From: Bispira polyomma
Lineage: Eukaryota
Reading direction: 5' to 3'
DNA: 64,000 bases
NCBI GenBank assembly: GCA_965649765.1
Contig: OZ287757.1
Span: 3,348,001 to 3,412,000, forward strand
Positions 6,967 to 59,800 of this stretch are shown here, in pieces (position 1 is the stretch's first letter; every line of letters begins with the position of its first letter). A model generated the notes under the pieces. It worked only from the letters and a program-made list of their open reading frames with translations, was not told the origin of the DNA and ran no database searches. The position numbers and the translations under genes were made by a program.

Positions 6967-9900
6967 ATGGCGGCTTTTGGATTTACAGTCTTTTTCTTGG
7001 CTGTCTCATTGGAATTGGGGTTAGGTGAGTAATATAGGATTTGTTATTGTACCACGGCTGTGGGACTTGACGGTAACACACTTGTTGTCACACTGGAATT
7101 GGGGTTAGGTAAGTAATATAGGATTTGTTATTGTACCACTGCTGTGGGATTTGTGGGTAGCTCACTGGCTGTATAGGATCTCCTCGTTCCAGGATTGTGT
7201 ATAGAGTTGGAGTGACGTTTCCACTTCATAAAGTATTAAATGTTTCTGGTAAAAAAATATTTATAAATATGTTATATTACCTGTTTTCAACAAAGTTCTA
7301 TATTTTTGGTTCTCTTTAGTAAAGTGTATATTTTATCATTTGGGTTAGCACATTTGTTTTACATGACATAAAAATATTTATTTTTCTCCATAAAGTCAGT
7401 ATTGTTTTGTTTTTTAAAAATACCACTTGGATTTAATTTAGTGAAAACCAAGGAAATCTAAGTAAGGAATTAGTTCTCACTTGTTTGAGAATATACCACC
7501 TCCGGGCTAGATCCGAGACTTGAAGCATTGCATAGATTTATTGTCAGAAGAGCTTTTAAATTGTACAGAAGATGCATCACATTAAAAATCCATGTCTGAA
7601 ATAGGGCACTGAATTGTTAGAAGGAGGCAGTAACACCAATATATGTAAAACTTTAAACGTTATTTCTCACTCGTAAAAAATCATCAAAAGTGCCTTATGT
7701 TTTCTCATCACTTTAAGCAAGTATGAAACTTAATGGTTAATGGGGATGGGGCATTGTGAATGTGTACATCATAAAGTTGGATTGGGATATTTAACGTCCA
7801 CTGTACTACCTGTTTAGGTTATATTGGGACGGGTAGTTGAAAACGCTGGAGGAAACATTGCAAACAATTGATCAAGGTTCTGCACTGAAACCAGCGGCCC
7901 ACAGTAAGGAACTACCACCTTTCCCACATAGGCATCGACGGAATTCAAACTCACGCCACCCAGAGGTGAGAGACCAATGATTGTGAAGCGCAATGTTTGC
8001 TAACCACTAGGCCACCGCAGCCCCGTGAACATCATTAAGGATGTTTTACATATGCCGAGACGTAAACCAGGAATATTTGAGAAATCAATTGTATGATTGT
8101 GTATGTTTGTATTAATTAATTTTTTTTCTATTTTTTGGTGTAATATGTCTTTTATTTTGTGTTTCAATCACAGTTTAAGTTTTTTGTTTGTAAAACTTTA
8201 ATGTATTTGATACAATAATTATAATCAATAGATAATGGTTTAGGCCGTTGTCGAGTACCCTCTACTGAGCACCCTTTTAGTTTATGATGCATCTGGTAGA
8301 ATGAAAATGTAACAAAATATTATTAAGGAATCACATTTCACTAGACAAGCAAGCAAGTCAATGTTTTGTATGCCAGAAGAAACTTAAAATCTAGATGTAT
8401 TACAATATATGGTATCAAGTGTTGGAATAAATAATTGTAATCTTTTTATTATAAGGCTCTTGTACTGTATATTTAACTATATCGAATGAAAATAACATTA
8501 AAATCTAGATGTATTTCAATATATGGTGTCAAGTTTTGAAATAAGTAATTGTAATCTTTTTATTATAAGGTTCATGTACTGTATATTTAACTATATCGAA
8601 TGAAAATAACATTAAAATCTAGATGTATTTCAATATATGGTGTCAAGTTTTGAAATAAGTAATTGTAATATTTTTATTATAAGGTTCGTGTACTGTATAT
8701 TTAACTATATCGAATGAAAATAACATTAAAATCTAGATGTATTTCAATATATGGTGTCAAGTTTTGAAATAAGTAATTGTAATCTTTTTTATTATAAAAG
8801 TTGTGTACTGTATATTTAACTATATCGAATGAAAATAACACATATTATTAATTAAACATTTAGGTTCGATCAATTTAGATAAAAGAGATTGAAAGACTAA
8901 AAATAAAACAAATGAAACCTAACAAAACAATTAAACATTTCGATGAGAGAAACTTGGATGATACAGTTTGAAAGACATTTTTACCGTATATACATTTATT
9001 TTTTTTTCTCCATCCAGGCGAAAAGGTGAAGGTCAGCTGGAAGGAATGTAACCTTGAGGCCGAGAAAAGACTCAACTGTGCTTATAATGGCATCACTGAG
9101 GAGAAGTGTTACCAGAGGGGATGCTGTTGGGCTGAAAATCCTGAAAGAGGGATAGCGTGCTACCACTCCATTAGTAAGTCTTAATAATACATCTGACACT
9201 TGGAATGTACAAATTGGTGCATTCGTAGTTCCGAGGATGCATGCGTTACTATCGGAAGTGACATGTTTTACATAAACAAATTCAATTATATGAGCTGTCA
9301 AAATATATTTAAGTGTTAACTCTCCGTTATTTTTTTCAAATAATGGCCTCAGATTTAGATATACTATGCAGAAGTATTGGTTCTTTGATAAGGTTGACAT
9401 TCCCATTTAATTTTTGTACAATTTGCAAAATAATAATACAGGATATTTATTAAACACTACATTAGGTATAAATAATTACTGTCCTTGTTTTAGTATCATA
9501 ATCTATTGGGAAATAACTGAGATATTTCACTTGACATACGGGTACCCATATTTACTTGATCTTGTGGCCTGTGTCTTTGCAGTATACAATATTTTTTGTT
9601 TATGTGCCATCTTTAGGACCGGAAAGTTGGAACTTTGCAAATTTGCAAATTAGCTTATCAACAAATACATATTTGTCGTCACAAAAAATGTAAATATATT
9701 ACACATACATGTCCAAGTTTAAGGTCAGAAAAGTGAAGCACTGTAAGTTCAAAGACCGCTCTTCACACACAATACTGATTTTCCGGGATTAGTTTATGTG
9801 TTTACGCTACTAAACCCTAAAGCCAAATGATGCTCTATCAGTCAACGTGGTTGTTGTGTTCATATTTGCTGGCCAGTCGCCAACACTCAAAGTTTAATGT

Positions 9901-25287: not shown

Positions 25288-25530
25288 GGGCCAAGTGGTT
25301 AGCAAGCATTGCGCTTCACTATCACTGGCCTCTCACCTCTGGGCGGCGTGAGTTAGAATCCTGTTGATGCCTATGTGGGAAGGGTGGTAGCTCCTTACTG
25401 TGGGCCACTGGTTTCAATGCAGAACCTTGATCAACTGTGTGCAGTGTTTCTTCCAGCGTTTCCAACTACCCGTCCCAATATAACCTAAACAGGTACTAGA
25501 GTGGACGTTAAATATCCAAATTCAATCATT
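25288..25530 (+). mobile_element. tRNA-derived SINE, same family as 7777-8024
   Basis: ggccaagtggttagcaagcattgcgcttcac...gagttagaatcc...gtggacgttaaatatccaaattcaatc aligns with the reverse complement of 7777-8024. A further remnant lies at ~28495-28565 (-). Confidence 0.85.
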
Positions 25531-34294: not shown

Positions 34295-36770
34295 TCAGTG
34301 CCCTACCCAGTGATTTTGAAGTAAGGAGCAACACAGGTAAGTAAAAAGGCTCAGATGGGGATATTAGTTTAATGCTTTCTATGTTAATTCTACATTTATG
34401 TACATACTGGTTTTTAGGGCCACCTTAGCCCCAGGACAAGATTTTAGTTTAAGGTGACCTTAGCCTGAGTGTTGTCAGTTTAAGGTCACGAATTTTGAGT
34501 TTAAGGGTAGCCCTAATATGACATTAGGGCTACCTAAAAGTGAGTTAAAGTTTTAGTTAACTTGTAAGTTGGGGTATTTTTGAATTACGAGGTAACCTTA
34601 GATTTTATTTAAGGTTGCCAAAGTAGATTAGAATGTATATCTAAAGGTTAACATAAAAAGGGTGGTAAGGTGGCCCTAGATGTTTATCTTTAACATTTAA
34701 TAATATAGTATGTGTGTAAAAATATGTAAATAAGTGCCAAAGCCCAATTAAGAAGTAGTGGATTTGGAAAGTAGTGGCTTGAAGGAGAGGGCCACTTGCT
34801 CTGAGGCATTGTGGTCCTGCACTATATACTTCCACACACAATCAGAGGTCCATGTGCCATGACTTTGAATATCTTGAATTGGTACATTATTATTAAAAGC
34901 TAAGGTAGCACCTGACCTCCGAAAGGTGTGGAAGGATATAGCAGAGTGTTGGAGCCCCAACCTGGTGAGTATTGAGGTGAGATTTTTCCTGATTTGACTA
35001 TCTATCATAGGAGACCACTTCTGGTCTTTTTTGAACTGAAACAAAGGAGAATTTTTGTGACCTGGAGTAATAACTAGGAGTACCCTAGTGGCCCTCACTG
35101 GACACAATGGAGAGCTGCCAAGACTAGAAATTTTGAGAACTTTGACTACATTTTTAGATTGTAAGGTCTTTGACCATTCAATTATTATGTGAAGGCCAGG
35201 AGGAGCGAACAACACGTCCCCCCCTGGCAAGCTGGACTAGAGGGGAGAATTGCGAGGCTGCATGAGGAACCAAATTAGAAATTCTTAAAAATGAGAAAAA
35301 AGCTATTAAGTACACTGCTCTGAATACTAATCCCATGCACATAGTGTCACAGGCTTGAATTATTTGGTGCAAAAGGGGAATGTCTATGATTGCTTTGATC
35401 TTGGCCCTGAAGGGGCTATTCAGCACGAGAGCTCTTTGGTAATATTTGATCCTACTGTCTGTGAAGGCCGTGACATTCAGCCCATATAGTGTCATTTTCG
35501 CTTTAATTGCAGATAAATAATTGGCAATGGAAGGGGAAGACACATTATTGACAACCAGAACTTTTAGAAATGCCAGGATAATCACAGGTGATATAAGACG
35601 TGGGCTGACCTGAGCAAAACTGCAAAGGGCCAAAAGATTCCTGAACTTGTTAGTGTAAGCTCTCTCAGTAGCTGGTTTGAAAGCTTGATAAGTTCTGTAT
35701 GTAGCCTGTGTAGCAATCTGTCTTAAGTGGCAAGGTATATCTGTAAATCAGACAGGCCAGTCTATTTCTAGCATGGTATGCTTGATTTGTACCCATTTGT
35801 AATGATGCACTAATTGTGATAACTTCTTATCATTATCTGCGGTGAGATGCCATCTTGAGAGAAGGTCAGCTACCGTGTTTAGTCTACCCAGGATATGTAT
35901 GGTTTTAAGACTTATATCCACTGAGGCCACCTCTATGAAAATATTTCGGGCGATTGCTGCCAAAGTAAGGTCTTTCGTTTTGCCTGAATTGAGAATGGTG
36001 ACGACTGCAGCGTTATCACATTGAATAATGAGGCGCTTACCTGCCCAAGTGGCTTTCCATAGTCTAATAGCTACTAAGATATTGAGCATTTCGAGATGTA
36101 CGATAGTCATGTCAAGATACCCAAGGGGAATTGAGAATTCATACACTTCGTCGTTACAGCGCCCCCCCCCCCAACCCCTGAAGACAAGCATCCAGCTGAA
36201 TACAGTCAGTGGTGGGTTTGTGATCAAAGAAAGCTCTGCCGTTAAATTTTGGTAGGAATTTTTTAAACTAATTCAAATCTTGGTGAAACTGGTCTGTGAG
36301 TTTAACCTTGTGGCTAGATCCTACTGATCTGAGGACGTCCAACATTCGATTTAAGAATACTCTAGATGTCCTTACACATTTAGAGATGTATAGCAGTTTG
36401 CCCAAAAGGGACTGCAGTTCACGTTTTATACAGCAATCTCGTGCTTGCCAAGTATGTATAAGGCTATTTATGTCTGCAAGCTTGTCTTCAGGGAGAGAAA
36501 CAGTTAGATCTACTGAATTTACCAGAACCCCCAGGCAGGTGACTGCTGTACTTGGGTAAACAAAAATAGAAGTATATTTAAAATGGCGGTGTCGCCTGCT
36601 TGAGTTCAATATAGAAAGTGAGGGTTCTAAGAAAAAGTGGGAAAGACTGGGGTCAATTAGTACAAACTGGCGAATCAGCCGGGAGGGCCATAGGTCATGA
36701 CCTCTGACAAATAAGTTAAGGAAAATACTGTAAGCACTGAACTAGCTATCCCCTGTGGGTCTATCCCGCA
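34295..36770 (-). mobile_element. Internally deleted, non-autonomous copy (copy B) of the tyrosine-recombinase retrotransposon
   Basis: Both termini are homologous to 53156-58688 (5' TGCGGG..GGGGATAG..TTCAGTGC; 3' GGGTAGGGCACTGA). About 210 nt of 5' leader joins directly to the RT thumb at ~36560. RNase H (35748-36227) and YR (34748-35740) are frameshifted at G/C runs. Confidence 0.93.
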
Positions 36771-50814: not shown

Positions 50815-53800
50815 TATCAACATAATATTTTGGTTAACTTAAGCAGTACTAATTTTTTTTTTATTTAACAACAGGAATCTATGATACTACTAAAACAAAC
50901 AGAATAAAAATAAGTTTAATTTTTTTTTTTTCAATTTTTTTCTTCTTTCTTGTGATTAAATTGGTACGCCTGGGCATAGTGGCATTAATGGTAGCAATGC
51001 CCCTGCATTTTAACACTTTTGTTACAGTCCACGCTGACACAGGCCTGTTTTGACTGAACCAACAGCAACCTACTTTCAAATGTTATCCCCAGTTAGAACA
51101 TAGTACACAAATTTATGTTCTTGCAAATCTGTGAAGAAATTAACCAATCCATGAGATTTTTATCATTTTTGTTTTAATCATGTGTTTTAAACACTCTCAT
51201 ATTCCTTGATTTTTATAAATGTCATCTTATGGTTTATCAAGGTCTGTTGAAAACAAGAACCCACCGCAATTTCAAATTTAGGTCATTGCGCATGCACTGC
51301 ATGAAAAGTGACGATGGAATAAAATATACTTAATATTTTACTGCATTAAATAGCGCTATTTTCATCAATATTTAACCTAAAAAATTAAGTTTTATATCAC
51401 CAGAAAGCTATTATTTTGTGATTTTCGACAGTCCAAACAGTTTATTAGTTGATGTTTGTGAAGAAATCGTTGTAAAAATCTTAAATGGTTGGAGATAAAT
51501 AGTCATTATGATTTCCTTGTAATTACTTTAGCTAAAATTTTAGAATTTATTTATCATAAAAGAGCAATTATTACACTTTCTGACCCTTTTTACGAAATGA
51601 AATTCCATTCAATATTGATTGGGATATTACAGTCTTTACTTTATACATATTTCTTTTATTGTAAATATGGTACATACAGACACACATGTTGTTATTTATG
51701 CTATAAGATGCTGGTTTTCATATCAGTTCAAACTGCAAATGACAAAATAAACTTCTTATTAGTAAAGCATTTACCTTAAATTTTTAATATGAGTGGTGAT
51801 TATGTGATGAAATAGTCACTTAATGGTTGTAAAACTAATTGGGTCTGTATACCAAGAATGAAGTGTGCTTGTTATATATGATATAAGCGACTCAGTTGCG
51901 AAAGACAGTGCAAACAAAAAAACTATAAATAGAAAATAATTTGCCATACATTTATTATGAAGAGTGATTATGTGATGAAAGAGTCACTTAATAGTTGTAA
52001 TACCAGTGTAGGGAAAGTTTTGTTGGAGATACTTTGTGCTAAAATCGAAAAATTTTCAATTTTCGCCCTGGCTCTTCGGTACGATTTTTAAAAGCCCTTA
52101 TACTAGGACATTGCTTATGTAGTTTGACTCTGCCTGTGCTACTGATCACAAAACTGAAAGAATTTTTTAAATCGGACAATTATTAATGGAGATATAAGCA
52201 TTTAAAGTTTTTATACTACATATGGTTTTGTATATTATTACCGAAAGTTTGACCGCTAACTAGTGACTGGTTCACTATTTTCTATTTACTTGCTTTGTTG
52301 TGGCATTATCATGTTATGGCCGACAGGTCATTCTCCGCTTGTTTATAAAAAGAAACAACTTATTCTTTCAATAATTTAAAAATTTTTTAGGAGAATGGTG
52401 TCGCCATTCCAAAACAGACTAACCCCATCAACAAGATTCTGCCTAGACTTGGGCTGTTGAAACGTGTGTTAAAAATATGTTACTGTCTTTAATTTTTGAT
52501 GTATGCTCTCTATACATAGACAAGATGATAATATAAATGGGGTAAAAGGCAAATAACTTGCTTTTATGTCGATAACTAGATAGAAATATTTTTAATTTTA
52601 ATGAACACAAGTGTACCTGTTTTATTATCAAATGTCATCGGCGGTCTCTGGGCAGCCATTTTCCAGGTCAGACGGGCACAGTCATGTATATAGGTCTTAA
52701 TGTCTTCCTGGTTTTCTTTACCTATTTTCACTATAGTTTTATTTAAAGAATCAAGTGATTTCTCCCTGTTTAGTTGATTAGGTGGTCTTTTTGAGATATC
52801 CTCATGAAACCTCTCCAACCTTGCCAGAAATTTTGTTTTGACAGCCTTCGGGAATATAAATAAAAAAACAATATCAGCGGTCATATTTTAAATTAAAATG
52901 CAATGTCTTAATATTGTTTTTTTTAACTATTATTTTGGCTATATTTATTATTAAAAAGATTTATACATCATCAAAATGATAAAAAAACAGTTATGCAAGA
53001 ATGTATGTAGGCTTGCAACATAGCCCAGGTCGTCAACAGAATGCAATGGTGACTTCACATTCTCGCACAAGAGTTATGTTGCATTGTATTTGTATTGTAT
53101 ACTTGCATTTTCAAGTAGCCTTATTGATGCAAGGTCTTCTAAATCTTTTAAAATGTGCGGGGTAGCGCCGTAGGGGATAGCAAGTTCAGTGCTACTAGTA
53201 TTTTCTACCCTGGGTTTATGCCCTATGAACCCCTTCCTAATTGGTCACTTGTGTACTAATTAACCTCTGTCTTCCGGCTTTTTAGCTAGAATCCTCACTT
53301 ACACTATTGAAGTCATTTAGGCAACAACGCCATCTTTAATATTTTACATTATTACTTTTATGTGTTTTATTTTTACTTCACTGATTTTACTATTTGTGTT
53401 ATGGAAACAAGAAATGCAACAAATGATTCACTAAGTGGTGCTACACACTAAGGAGGAACTGATCTGCAGTGTTTTTGCTGGATTCCTGTGTTTTACTCTA
53501 CTTTGAGTCTTGCGATTATATGCTCGTTTGAGCGGTGATAAAGGAACGTGGTCAAATCAATTATATTGCATCAAATTCCCGGCTATTTGCCTGATTACAT
53601 ATAATTTAATTTAGATTATCGCGTTACAGTTCCTTTAGTATAGTTGCAGGTATCAAAGACACGAGTTCTTATATTATTCAGAGGCTATGGCCCCAAGGAA
53701 ACAATACTACTGTCACAAGTGTGAAACTAGTCATATTAAACCCATTGATGAAAACTGTAAAATGCATACCAGTGTGGGAACCTCCAAGCAGAACTCTGTG

Positions 53801-56800
53801 GCTGGCGATGGTGTAACTGCTGCCGACGTTAACCTACAGATTTTGACTGAACTCAAAGCATTAAGTGGGCGTATGACCCAAGTTGAGCAGCAAGTTTATC
53901 GCGTTTCACATGGAGCCCAGGCTTTGACGGCGTCGAGCCCGGGGAGTGCAGCCCAACCTAGACAGGCGGACCAAACCACTTCTGAGCTACTGGTCCCGAC
54001 GCTACAGACACTACATACATCCGACTCCCTACAGACTGCAGTGGATTCACGTCTTAAGGAATTGGTGGCCATTAATAATTCAGGTACGTTAAAATCTCAA
54101 AGAGGGGGTCCCGACACTCTGTGGGTGAAGAATAAGGTGGCTTGGCCTCAGAACGTTATACTAGGGGGACAAAACAAAACACGAGTTACGTATGACGCGT
54201 TGTCAATGGCCCAGTGGGTCTCTGGTTTTGCCAGTATAGCTAAAGATGAAAGTAGTTTAGACGTTAAAAACCAAATGTTGGAGTATCTCACTGACCTCAT
54301 GGAGGACGCTCATGATTTTTCCTGGACCTCGGCTAAGGCTAGCCATGCCGTTGTACTGTGTAAAATGGAAGAGGGTAAGGTAACCTGGGGAGATGCCCAC
54401 AAGTTGGACAGGATTAGACGGGCTCATGCCCAAAGGGTTGTCATCCACACTGCAAATAGTAATTATCAAACCAACACCAGGAAAAGTCATGAGAAGTCCA
54501 TCCCATGTAGGTACTTCCAGAGGGGTACTTGCCCCCAAAAAGGGGATCACGAATTCAAAGGTGTGTCATATAGTCATGTGTGTAACCAATGCTTTCAAAA
54601 TGGGAGGTCTTACCCCCACCCTGCAAAAGACTGTAAAAAATATCCGTTAAAAAACGAGTAAAGCACTGCAGTAATGCAGTGCCAGCCTATGTTTCTTCCA
54701 CACAAGAGGTGGTCAGAAAAAAACTTGCACAAAAAGTTGTAAATAATTCTAAAGGTTGTCCCACTAGAACTGTGTATAATAGTCTTAAATGTAATACTGG
54801 CAGTACACATTGGAGGGCAGATTGGGCCAAATTTGTAAATAGATCTTATGCTGATGTGGTTAAAAGAAAGGCTCCCTCCAGGTCTGCTGACATAAAGGTT
54901 TCTGTACAAAGTGCAAATGTGAATCAGAGGTGGCAAAGTCACCAGGTTAAATGTTCACCATGTTTAAATAACAACCAAATTTCAGAAGTGTCCACAAAAC
55001 ATGAACTGGGGCACAGAGTGAGTGTTAAAACTTTCACAAAAGGTGCTTCCCCTTTTACAAGTCCACAGAGGAATAATGTAATGTCAAAAATGGGTAAACC
55101 CCCTCCAACAAAAGGTGATCAATTTGGCCAAAAGCTGGAAATCACAAAATTAGACATTCAGGGCAAATGGCCCATTTCCACTCACAATAGGTTTTCCCCG
55201 TTGAGTGACAATGACCATTATATGGACACTAGTGACAATTCTTTCACACATTTAGCAGATACTTGTAACCAAGGTCAAGGTCTTAAAATACTCTCTCGAG
55301 GTACTGGGGGAATAAAATCAGACAAATATGACCTAGAACTACAAACTAAATCGAAAAACAGGGAACTTATAAAACGTGCTTCCAACCAGCCTCAGTTCCA
55401 GCAATGGGATACTCAAACTACAGATAAGTATGGGTTTATTCCGCTAAATGGCCTCCAAGTTCCCCAAACGGATAAACGAGTAAAGTCGGATAAGTCTCTG
55501 TTAGAGTTACACACTCAGATTAAGCAGGACAACTACCCAAATTATATGGGGGCACAAGTTCAATTGAAATCTGAGTTGAACCCAGATGTATGGGAAAAAT
55601 ACTTGACTGACTACTGGGATAAACAACTCCCCTTTTTGATAAGATATGGGTTTCCCCTCGATTTTAATCCTGACAGCAAGTTATCTCATACAGAACAGAA
55701 TCATTCATCTGCAACACAATTTCCAGATGATGTGCATGCTTATTTAAAAGAAGAGACTGAGTTAGGGGCCATGTTGGGCCCTTTCCATAAGGCCCCCATA
55801 CAAAACCTCCATATTTCTCCCTTTATGACTAGGGAAAAGCCAGGTGCCGCACACAGGCGCGTTATCATAGATTTAAGCTTTCCTCATGGCAACTCTGTGA
55901 ATTCGGCTGTAGTCAAGGATAAGTATCTCGGTACTGCGTTTGCATTAACCCTTCCCACAATTGACACAATTACAAACAAAATATGTCGTATGGGACGTGG
56001 AACGCTCTTATATAAAATTGACGTAAGTCGGGCATTTCGTCACGTAAAAATGGATCCAGCTGATTACAATCTATTAGGCTTAAAATTAGACAAATACTAC
56101 GTCGACTCTTGCCTCCCATTTGGTTTTCGGCACGGGAGCGCAATTTTTCAGCGATTAAGTGACGCCGTCAGGTACATCATGAAACGTCACGGACATGACG
56201 TCACCAACTATATCGACGACGTAATCGGCTATGGTGACGTCATAGAAAGTAAACATTCATTTGATATATTGCTCAACTTACTCCAGGAACTAGGCTTTGC
56301 AATTAGTCACAAAAAACTTGTTCACCCCAGCACGTCAGTAACGTGTCTGGGGGTGTTAGTTAATACAAATGACTTGACAATCTCATTGCCAGATGAAAAG
56401 CTACTAGAAATAAACACACTTGTGCAAGACTGGCAATTAAGAAACTGCTGCAGTAAGAGGGAGTTGCAGTCACTGCTAGGTAAATTGTTATATGTATCCA
56501 AATGTGTTCGAGTTTCACATGCTTTCTTAAACCGAATGCTTGACGTCCTAAGATCGGTAGGCCCGGATCAAAAAGTAAAACTTACACCTGAGTTTCATCA
56601 GGATGTAAATTGGTTTAAAAAATTTTTACCAACATTTAATGGAAAAGCCTTCTTTGAACACAAACCCACTACCGATTGTATTCAGTTGGATGCGTGCCTC
56701 CAAGGTCTGGGAGGCCATTGTAATGATGAAGTATACCAATTCCAAATTCCTCTAGGTTATCTAGATTTCACGATAGTTCATCTGGAAATGTTAAACATCC

Positions 56801-59800
56801 TAGTTGCCATTAGGCTATGGAAGTCAGCGTGGGCAGGTAAGAGGCTAATATTGCAATGCGACAATGCTGCCGTGGTCACTATCCTCAATTCAGGCAAAAC
56901 TAAAGACCTCACTTTGGCAGCTATTGCCAGAACCATCTTCATGGCCGTAGCCTCCCATGATATCAGTCTCAAAACCATTCACATTTTAGGTAGACTTAAT
57001 ACAGTGGCTGATCTCTCTAGATGGCAGATCACGGCCAGCAATAATGACAAGTTACTAGAACTGGTATCGAATCCCAAATGGGTAAAAGTAAAAGACACAA
57101 TGTTAGAAATAGATTGGTCTATCTAATTGCAGATGTACCTTCCAAGCTAAGAAAGATTGCTACACAAGCCTCATACAGAGCCCATCAGGCCTTTAGACCA
57201 GCCACTGAAAGGGCCTATACAAATATGTTTAGGATATTCTTGGCCTATTGTAGTTTTGCTCAGGTCAGGCCTCGAAATATCTCCCCCCTTATTATATTGG
57301 CTTTCTTAGAAGTATTAGTGGTTAATCATGTCTCTTCCTCCTCCATTGCAAACTACCTTTCGGCGGTTAAAGCTAAATTGGCCCTCTATGGCCTTGACGT
57401 CTCTGCATTTGCAGATCCTAGAATTAAGTATTACCAAAAAGCCCTTACACTCAATAGCCCCTTCAGGGCTAAAATTAACGCTATTATTGACATTCCCCTG
57501 TTACTCCAAATTACTCAAATTTGTGACAGCATGTACATGGGGCAGATCTTCAAGGCTCTGTATCTCATTGCTTTCTTTTCTTTTCTTAGAATATCCAACT
57601 TACTTCCACATGCTGTCTCTCAATTCTCTCCACTAGTCCAACTGGCCCGGGGGGACGTACTTTTTGCCTCCCCTGGCCTCCACCTCATAATAAAGTGGTC
57701 TAAAACAATGCAGTCAAAGAATGTAGCAAAAGTTATTAAAATACCGAGCCTAAGTGGCTCTAGTCTCTGTCCGGTGGCTGCCACAAGGGCCTTGCTGGCT
57801 ATTACTCCTGGACACAAAAATTCTCCTCTCTTTCAGTTTAAAAAATACCATAAATGGTCTCCAATGATTGACACCCAAGCTAGGCAAAATCTCACGCAAA
57901 TTTTGAGGCGTCTTGGCCTCCAGCAATCAAACATTTCTTTCCACACCTTCAGGCGTTCAGGTGCCACCTGGGCCTTCAACAATAATGTCCCAATTCAAGA
58001 TATCCAGAGCCATGGCACTTGGACGTCTGATTGTGTCTGGAGATATATTGTACAGGATCACAATGCATCTGACCAAGTCGCCCTCACCTTCAAGGCCCTC
58101 CTTTCCCCTTCTACTACTTCCTAGTTGGGCTTTGGGGCTTTATTTACATACATTATATACAAATAAAATATAATAATGCTTAAATATAAATATTTTGGGG
58201 CCACCTTACCTTATACTAATTTAATCCTTTTACATCTTTACTAAATCTCTTTTGGCAACCTCAAATAAAATCTAAGGTTACCATTTTTCTTAAATTTAAA
58301 CTCATTCTAAGGTTACCCTAACTTCAAGTTAGGGTTACCCCTAAATTCAACCTTAAAAATTTCAATCTTTGGTAACCCTAACTTCCAAGTTGGGGCTACC
58401 CTTAACCTTAAACTCAATCTTAGGTAGCCCTAACTTTCAAGCTAGGGCTACCCCTTAAATTTTAAAAATCCCTTTGGTCACTTTGGCCTGTTGTCCTCAG
58501 GTTAAGGTCACCTTAAACTCTTAACTTCTCCTAAACTCTTGGGGCTAAGGTGGCCTTTTACTACACAGTATGTAAATAATTATTAGTGATAACATAGTAA
58601 AATTAAAGCTAATATCCCCAAAACCTACCTTTCTTGTTATTTTCCTGTGTTACACCACATCTACAAGTTTACTAGGGTAGGGCACTGAAACAGGTTCAGT
58701 GAACTAATTGTCAAGTCAAAAAAACTATGTTGGGGTGTATAGGGAAGGAGCACTGCGGAGAGTAGACGAGTTTTAAAACATAAGTGAGAAAAAGTATAAA
58801 TCCAGCCATCTTGGTAGGTGTTACAGAGGAAACAAAAAGTCTCCTTCCTCATTTGAGGAAAGACAAGTTGCAAGCTTTGTTATTCCTCATGACCATGTAA
58901 ATGTATGTATATATTCTATCATGGTTATTATTTTAAACATTTACTTTATGTTAATTAGCATTTTAAAGAGTCCTCTAATAATACCGGAACAACTTGTACA
59001 TACTTTCATGACGCAAAATATGTGTATATGCTATGTTATATTTTTCCTCTTTTTGAAATGTGTTTACCTCAAACAAGCCCTTGATATCAGCCGTGTCACA
59101 GGTTGCTCTGAGGAAATCACTGATTGATATTTTCAGGCCATCCGGTATTGAGTCATATGTTTTTTCAACCATCATCACTTGATCTAAGGAAGTCCTTTCC
59201 TGCACCTGTATTTGCATGTTGAAAACAAGTTTTAAATTTTAATATTAAAAAAGTTCACAATAAAATATCTTATCACAATGTGAACATACACAATATCCCT
59301 TCACAAATAGTCACCGACAATCATTATGAAGTGCCTGATATTTGATTTTTGTTTTTCATCTGCGTGAGGAGGGATCATTTGAAGGCCTTACAACAGGGTT
59401 AAATAAATATATACAGAGTGTTTATATCCAAAACGTCTGAGACTCTTCTACTACAGCAACTGCCTTCAGTAACAAGAATGTTAACACCATAGCCTCACAG
59501 TAGTAACAAGGAATTGGTACTGACTTTGCAGAATATGTATGTAGTTTATGTAATCTACTATATCAAGCTTCTGTATTGAGGCAATACAGAGTGATAGTTA
59601 TATAACTGTTTTTGATAACAAAAACGGAGTGTCCCTAAATTGAAACAATAATAAAGTTGTTTAGTGTTGAAGGTTTGAAATGTTTTTTTTTTTTAAATGA
59701 GATCGATATTGATCTATCTGGCACCATTTCCAAGATAACAAATGTTTTGGAAATAAACACAGTCAAGATGGGCAAAAAAATCAGAAAGTTTCATAAAAGC

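Follow-up and report, generated by a model that had tools for sequence, protein, structure and literature searches.

A Ngaro-type retrotransposon without split repeats in Bispira polyomma and a hairpin spanning the B|A junction of its relatives

We analyzed a 64,000-nucleotide (nt) stretch of the Bispira polyomma genome (assembly GCA_965649765.1, contig OZ287757.1, forward-strand positions 3,348,001 to 3,412,000; hereafter the window), which contains two copies, A and B, of a tyrosine recombinase (YR) retrotransposon. An initial annotation had noted that both lack long terminal repeats and had proposed that short complementary motifs draw the ends together, as a third terminal architecture beside those of DIRS1-type and split-repeat elements. 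We found that the motifs at the two ends, GCACTGA and TCAGTGC, correspond to the two arms of a hairpin across the B|A junction of Ngaro relatives, as folding and covariation show. Ngaro elements belong to the DIRS order and have the layout A1-ORFs-B1-A2-B2, where ORFs are open reading frames (PMC8547959, PMC4157794, PMC3783388). Because relatives with repeats share a 30-nt junction geometry with the window copies, the simplest reading, and one that we consider probable though far from certain, is that both copies are Ngaro-type A-ORFs-B derivatives without the A2-X-B2 segment.

Self-comparison of positions 52500-59500, which include copy A, revealed no long inverted terminal repeat (ITR) and no direct repeat shared by the two ends, in agreement with what had been annotated by eye; the best direct local alignments were AT-rich noise. 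We located the ends in contigs from three sequencing runs (two samples of one study, possibly the source sample). A low-depth left-flank contig with 0 differences stopped at 53181 in all three runs, and a low-depth right-flank contig, also with 0 differences, started at 58660 in all three. The 31-mer contigs of such assemblies overlap by 30 bases. Given these overlaps, the repeated sequence spans ~53152-58689, a few bases off the ends set by the alignment of copies A and B. Since it is confined to this interval in 3/3 runs, there is no A2-B2 outside the first-drawn bounds of copy A. Internal contigs were ~30-50-fold deeper than flank contigs; as contig depth is not a copy number, tens of copies is a rough figure for the family.

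The initial annotation had also described TG at both ends. The dinucleotides are present, but both copies end in TGA, which makes a shared TG core one of two possible readings of the ends. The 30-nt spacing described below favors a blunt junction, in which the element would end in TGA and start at 53156, over a shared-TG junction. No empty-site joint was found among 15 of 76 contig joints listed, and no paralogous empty site occurs in the window. We rejected two candidate features of the ends. A resemblance of the target to the 3′ end amounts to a partial complement in the flank at offset 7 for copy A and 30 for copy B, which chance reaches in 3820 and 1165 of 20000 cases, respectively. A 21-nt inverted pair (53146-53166/58447-58467) includes flank, is not kept in copy B and is attributed to chance.

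In copy A, as first annotated, GGGGATA (53173-79) and TCAGTGC (53186-92) are complementary to TATCCCC (58613-19) and to the terminal GCACTGA (58682-88); all four motifs are identical in copy B. Because the first 187 nt of copy A share 10 complementary 7-mer pairs with its tail when this copy is taken alone, a single such pair means little. Two pairs were kept in both copies, exactly those initially noted (null mean 0.18, P = 0.03, 5000 shuffles); for 6-mers, four pairs were kept versus 1.05 expected (P = 0.044). The support from conservation is thus real but modest. Both pairings proved longer than first reported. The terminal pairing extends as a bulged stem whose letters covary (CTAGTA/TACTAG in copy A, CAGT-ATTTT/AAATCACTG in copy B), and the internal GGGGATA/TATCCCC pairing reaches 19 matches over 22 columns in copy B.

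The motifs had been interpreted as a mini-splint, with a small hairpin at the start of each copy. The first hairpin of copy B contains a C-A mismatch. Two-strand folding of copy A showed the conserved terminal pairing stacking the 3′ end beside the 5′ hairpin, the part of the splint idea that holds. However, the two 7-mer pairings cross (their partners occur in the order TATCCCC, then GCACTGA), so they cannot form a single collinear splint resembling an internal complementary region (ICR) and could coexist only as a pseudoknot. In copy B, the internal pairing is longer, takes in TCAGTGC itself, and is in competition with the terminal pairing. Predicted plus-strand RNA probabilities for the internal versus the terminal pairing were 0.14 versus 0.75 in copy A and 1.0 versus 0.0 in copy B; as nested folding cannot show crossing pairings together, these either-or values partly reflect the model. 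Because nothing is complementary across the joined ends, GGGGATA/TATCCCC is not an ICR in the DIRS1 sense. This pairing is the best handle for a reading in which the repeat-less element is self-sufficient.

A metagenome scan yielded 53 related loci, with YR identities of 23-42% over the longer matches. A YR profile search gave no confirmed locus in genome contigs or viral contigs, and a reverse transcriptase (RT) profile search gave one locus in genome contigs (L054) and none in viral contigs. L054 (CBDCUS010000007.1) is a eukaryote-type YR retrotransposon contig in a metagenome-assembled genome classified as bacterial (GTDB), most likely through host contamination. By self-comparison, eight loci (L003, L005, L020, L038, L041, L046, L054, and L048) contain duplications that fit split repeats. 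In both YR and RT trees, the window element fell in a clade with SH-aLRT support of 100 together with the repeat-bearing L003 and L005, and the other repeat-bearing loci lay across the midpoint root from this clade. These trees, made by a quick method, with copy B absent from the RT tree and no named rows in either, point to kinship with split-repeat elements rather than to a formal placement.

The relatives show the full form of the clade to be A1-ORFs-G tract-B1-A2-X-B2, X being a short C-rich spacer. The G tract directly follows the YR stop codon in both window copies and in 20 of the 39 loci with enough tail; the pattern, which was defined after the loci had been viewed, arises by chance in 101 of 5000 cases. 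In copy A, L020, and L003 the tract begins a hairpin, which is weaker in copy B. The CCCACCC-like spacer between A2 and B2 was found at L020:4298, L046:6461, L047:7683, L003:5499, L005:720, L054:1512, and L038:1385. This spacer, which the window copies do not contain, could pair with the G tract behind the YR stop. L005 and L054 have the head-to-tail arrangement B1-A2-X-B2-A1-ORFs-B1-A2, which may represent tandem arrays, circles, or assembly paths.

Four loci (L037, L043, L034, and L050) stop at B, and their contigs contain no A sequence; members of their families (L020, L046, and L041) have the repeats. L021 and L048 were rejected as further examples, since L021 keeps 27 nt of A2 and L048 has an insertion at the junction. 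We moved both to the junction set, and placed L042 and L044, which share the inserted sequence of L048, in neither set. The insertion, L048:2131-3293, is a ~1.16-kb element that is bounded by inverted repeats (GAGGCCCT..AGGGCCTC) and accompanied by a duplication of ACTAAT. It lies at most 2 bases from the B1|A2 junction, and L042 and L044 begin the same insertion.

We examined junctions that were fixed by flanks (L020, L046, L041, L021, and L048) or by a shared GTAATT end (L016 and L038). Of the 8 junctions open to the test, 7 show pairing of the end of B with a motif located 28-33 nt inside A, and an inner hairpin occupies the spacer of the junction fold. Among offsets of 0-60, the best were 30 for L020, L041, L016, and L038, 33 for L046, 28 for L021, and 29 for L048; in both window copies it was 30. 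Random windows reached the scores of L020, L041, L016, L038, and L046 in 36-335 of 20000 cases. L021 and L048, which were found later, fold like the other junctions. In a five-row alignment, 91.4% of cells were paired; shuffled alignments gave 83.4% (2 of 500) and slid ones no more than 55.7%. Pairing in the outer helix reached 95.6%, with both sides changed in 2 of 9 pairs, and the flanks of the relatives show that the element was opened exactly at the top of this outer stem. The loci closest to the window element, L002 (z = -2.8), L003 (-1.5), L005 (-3.3), and L013 (-6.8), also have strong hairpins of similar shape in the interval from YR to the following A or gag. The sequences of L033, L022, and L025 stop before the offset test can be applied.

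The conserved junction hairpin is a candidate single-stranded recombinase site. It seems to be new: a hairpin across the Ngaro B|A junction was not described in the accessible parts of the literature searched, which lay outside the founding Goodwin and Poulter papers and the 2015 Poulter and Butler review, and the term "hairpin" had no matches in the accessible text of PMC3783388.

Copy A has three open, overlapping frames on one strand, in the order gag, RT-RNase H, YR (Table 1). Its pol frame ends ~35 residues past RNase H, with no Pfam match to a methyltransferase domain at E ≤ 0.1 in copy A; at most 80 residues follow RNase H in 93 of 94 scorable pol homologues (of 120 listed). A short pol end without a methyltransferase is the state described for Ngaro and VIPER (PMC4157794, PMC3783388). 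The gag, RT-RNase H, and YR genes that define Ngaro, with YR after pol on the same strand, are all present in copy A. The split direct repeats A1..B1-A2-B2 are absent from copies A and B, and because of this absence we file both as Ngaro-derived rather than as canonical Ngaro. A motif scan of copy B found a TATA-like motif at +157 and CGCCAT at +183. CGCCAT is a YY1-like motif. Promoter-like motifs of this kind also lie inside A in L002, L003, and L013. An AATAAA is conserved ~420 nt ahead of the 3′ end.

These features suggest how the reduced form might arise. A full master would be transcribed from a promoter inside A, as the motifs suggest, and A2 and B1 would provide the missing ends. The cDNA could then fold at the B|A junction, where the recombinase would open the top of the outer stem; the fold, in single-stranded cDNA or as a cruciform, would be the site that the tyrosine recombinase recognizes and cuts. 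The cDNA of DIRS-1 is single-stranded (PMC7192593). Recombination of B1 with B2 after insertion would leave A-ORFs-B. Alternatively, the reduced form may originate as a single-junction by-product of reverse transcription or of recombinase action. Because the promoter appears to lie inside A, reduced copies, whose own RNA would be without the first ~165 nt, presumably depend on repeat-bearing masters elsewhere.

Such a simpler origin, a Ngaro copy without A2-X-B2, was overlooked in the initial annotation and has precedents. The DIRS-54_XT consensus is without repeats that copies 5 and 10 have (bioRxiv 2021.08.05.455354), and the Repbase consensus of VIPER lacked 3′ repeats that some copies have (PMC6681497). 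Reciprocal reduced forms are known as well: solo AB repeats in Cafeteria correspond to A-X-B (PMC8547959), and SIRE consists of A2, 30 bp, and B2 (PMC6681497).

Several observations weigh against derivation from repeat-bearing masters. No repeat-bearing copy of the window family was seen, the readable copies being A and B; the repeats are absent from 2/2 of these, one of which has three open ORFs. No joint from 58688 to 53156 occurs among 15 of 76 contig joints listed, and the depth of A at 53246 (543, 540, and 1648 in the three runs) is not double the internal depth (416-430, 372-398, and 2214). The nearest readable relatives share just 38-43% protein identity, relatives at 50-63% being known as proteins alone, and the trees contain no DIRS1, PAT, or VIPER reference rows. 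The loci that end at B are short contigs and may be assembly collapses. As for the hairpin, L040 fails the offset test (best score 5.5 at 28-34), the ungapped scores of L021 and L048, with their bulged stems, fall short of significance (2032 and 2169 of 20000), and whole-window fold z scores are weak (L020, -1.4; L046, -1.3; L016, +1.3). A single clade supplies six of the seven conforming junctions, and the structure was derived from the very sequences tested. The junctions of L002, L003, L005, and L013 are not fixed by flanks, and a blind scan agreed for L013 only. The reduced copies, the missing junction joint among those listed, and the undoubled depth of A fit a family that is mostly reduced, with few masters or none.

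A tentative alternative, which we judge less likely, is that the window copies represent a Ngaro lineage that replicates by itself without A2-X-B2. In such a lineage, a modified form of the splint idea, the fold of a full-length RNA or cDNA would let the terminal stem and 5′ hairpin keep the ends side by side for joining, and GGGGATA/TATCCCC would act as a pseudoknot or switch. Both window copies, 28% apart, share the reduced form and its exact ends; the junction joint is missing among the 15 of 76 listed, and A is not clearly twice as deep. In addition, both copies conserve the internal pairing (19/22 columns in copy B), and folding of copy A stacks both ends. However, the terminal stem exists alongside split repeats in the relatives and gives no sign of having replaced them; the two pairings cross and compete; the promoter-like motifs are internal to A (at 85-183 nt), as is also seen in L002, L003, and L013; the conserved AATAAA precedes the 3′ end by ~420 nt; and YR families earlier thought to be repeat-less had repeats in some copies. 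A bolder reading, likewise less likely, is that Ngaro recombinases act on an attC-like folded single-stranded junction and that in this lineage the fold, together with GGGGATA/TATCCCC, suffices to close the ends, so that the element would replicate as a third architecture derived from Ngaro with neither split repeats nor an ICR. As originally framed, in place of split repeats, a third architecture is not supported, since relatives with A1..B1-A2-B2 show the same pairing between the end of B and A+30; a third terminal architecture is not established.

It is improbable that the reduced form is an assembly artifact, in which B1-A2-X-B2 collapsed to a single B and the real insertions are ordinary Ngaro elements. 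At ~560 nt, B is long enough to collapse in a short-read assembly, and the independent contigs, which are interrupted at either end of the element, fail to span the tail. Nevertheless, collapse would be needed twice, once of it in copy B, which is old and diverged, tandem repeats elsewhere in the window were resolved, and the 15 of 76 joints listed include no junction joint. A miniature DIRS1-type end is less probable still and already largely refuted. It would consist of a left extension of 30 nt, a degenerate ITR (~15-25 nt), and, at 58593-58619, an internal complementary region. DIRS1-like elements with a left extension only do exist (PMC3266345), the arms at the two termini make up an inverted repeat that is short and bulged, and the 5′ end is complementary to the internal stretch, but there is no methyltransferase, nothing internal is complementary across the joined ends, the repeats of the relatives are direct rather than inverted, and ITRs in the literature measure 66-316 bp, with ICRs totaling 85-130 bp (PMC3266345).

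Like Ngaro, the window element has gag, RT-RNase H, and YR in order on one strand, in overlapping ORFs and with no methyltransferase, and its nearest readable relatives have split repeats and the same G tract, B-opening hairpin, and junction stem. Unlike Ngaro, it is without A2-X-B2, has a B of ~560 nt with three palindromic repeats in copy A, adds the GGGGATA/TATCCCC pairing, and has no hydrolase ORF after YR. Partial repeat loss has been described for DIRS-54_XT, VIPER, SIRE, and the Cafeteria solo AB repeats; in contrast to these, the ends in the window are exact and common to two diverged families. VIPER-like elements are described as restricted to kinetoplastids. DIRS1-like elements (ITR plus ICR; PMC3266345, PMC7192593) are also YR retrotransposons with 5′-3′ and internal complementarity, but the window element has no methyltransferase, long ITR, or region complementary to the junction, and thus neither of the features, ITR plus ICR and methyltransferase, that mark the group. 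PAT-like elements combine a methyltransferase with split direct repeats (PMC4157794), neither of which occurs in the window copies.

Another likeness concerns possible function, and here the window element and its relatives recall the attC sites of integrons. An attC site consists of an outer stem, an unpaired spacer, and an inner stem, with the crossover at the edge of the outer stem. The B|A junction appears to share this arrangement, a lead to how it might work; the likeness on the Ngaro side is one of fold and covariation. Unlike attC, the junction belongs to a eukaryotic retroelement, and its inner loop in the window element is lopsided (0 versus 13 nt). For attC, the folded bottom strand is the substrate of the tyrosine recombinase (PMC8876359).

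End joining and integration of split-repeat YR elements are known only as a model (PMC6681497), and experiments exist for DIRS-1 (PMC7192593). The conserved hairpin, centered on the B|A junction, brings the mechanism within reach of direct tests. With the element opened at the top of the stem, it offers a small, defined substrate on which purified recombinase could be compared between single strand and duplex. Annotators could fix the ends of Ngaro copies that lack repeats by searching ~30 nt inward from the 5′ end for a match complementary to the 3′ end. Should the family prove to have no repeat-bearing master, the two-architecture scheme of the DIRS order would need a third entry.

Table 1. 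Features of the two retrotransposon copies (positions are those of the window; RT, reverse transcriptase; YR, tyrosine recombinase)
Feature	Position	Strand	Evidence
Copy A, Ngaro-type YR retrotransposon, A-gag-pol-YR-B without A2-X-B2	53156..58688	+	Alignment of copies A and B; contig breakpoints
A-like leader, the part kept with copy B (71% over 199 columns)	53156..53342	+	
Inner hairpin TGCGG..CCGTA within first 30 nt; relatives also have a spacer hairpin	53156..53172	+	Folding
GGGGATA, complementary to 58613-58619, in loop of junction hairpin	53173..53179	+	Co-conserved in A and B
Right arm of B|A junction hairpin, TCAGTGC plus bulged extension, from A+31	53186..53200	+	Best offset 30 in both copies; covarying extension
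Promoter-like motifs within A: ATTGG at +85, CGCCAT at +173	53240..53333	+	Motif scan; function putative
gag-like ORF, first ATG at 53687, Cys/His motifs at either end	53639..54661	+	No Pfam match
pol ORF, RT and RNase H-like end	54637..57126	+	PF00078, E 3.5e-11; PF13456, weak
YR ORF, overlaps pol	57048..58124	+	PF00589, E 1.8e-06
G tract TTGGGCTTTGGGG, directly 3′ of YR stop; start of B in relatives	58125..58137	+	
B-like tail with opening hairpin, AATAAA at 58162 and 58264	58125..58688	+	
Internal stretch complementary to 5′ motif, TATCCCC core, longer in copy B	58593..58619	+	
Left arm of B|A junction hairpin, reaching last base of element	58671..58688	+	
Copy B, diverged family, same two ends as copy A	34295..36770	-	~72% identical to copy A

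Additional observations concern the two copies and their surroundings. In copy B, the first ~200 nt are joined to the middle of the RT region by an internal deletion, and the other ORFs are broken. The tail of copy A contains three palindromic 40-nt repeats (58302-58453) that form strong hairpins; in copy B, one unit is complete and another partial. At position 57012, other copies have three extra letters, indicating a one-codon in-frame loss in copy A near the end of RNase H. To the left of the element, near 53104, depth was ~250 in runs X1 and X2 versus ~10 in unique flank; this peak may reflect a short diverged repeat or a preferred target, and the window contains no second copy. Another repeat family begins ~110 nt behind copy A, where loose letters before 58800 are common to 75-88 contigs in each run. 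Elsewhere in the window, a tandem array of ~114-nt units occupies 8384-8840, and a 237-nt inverted dispersed repeat occurs at 7777-8013 and 25289-25525 with 90% identity.

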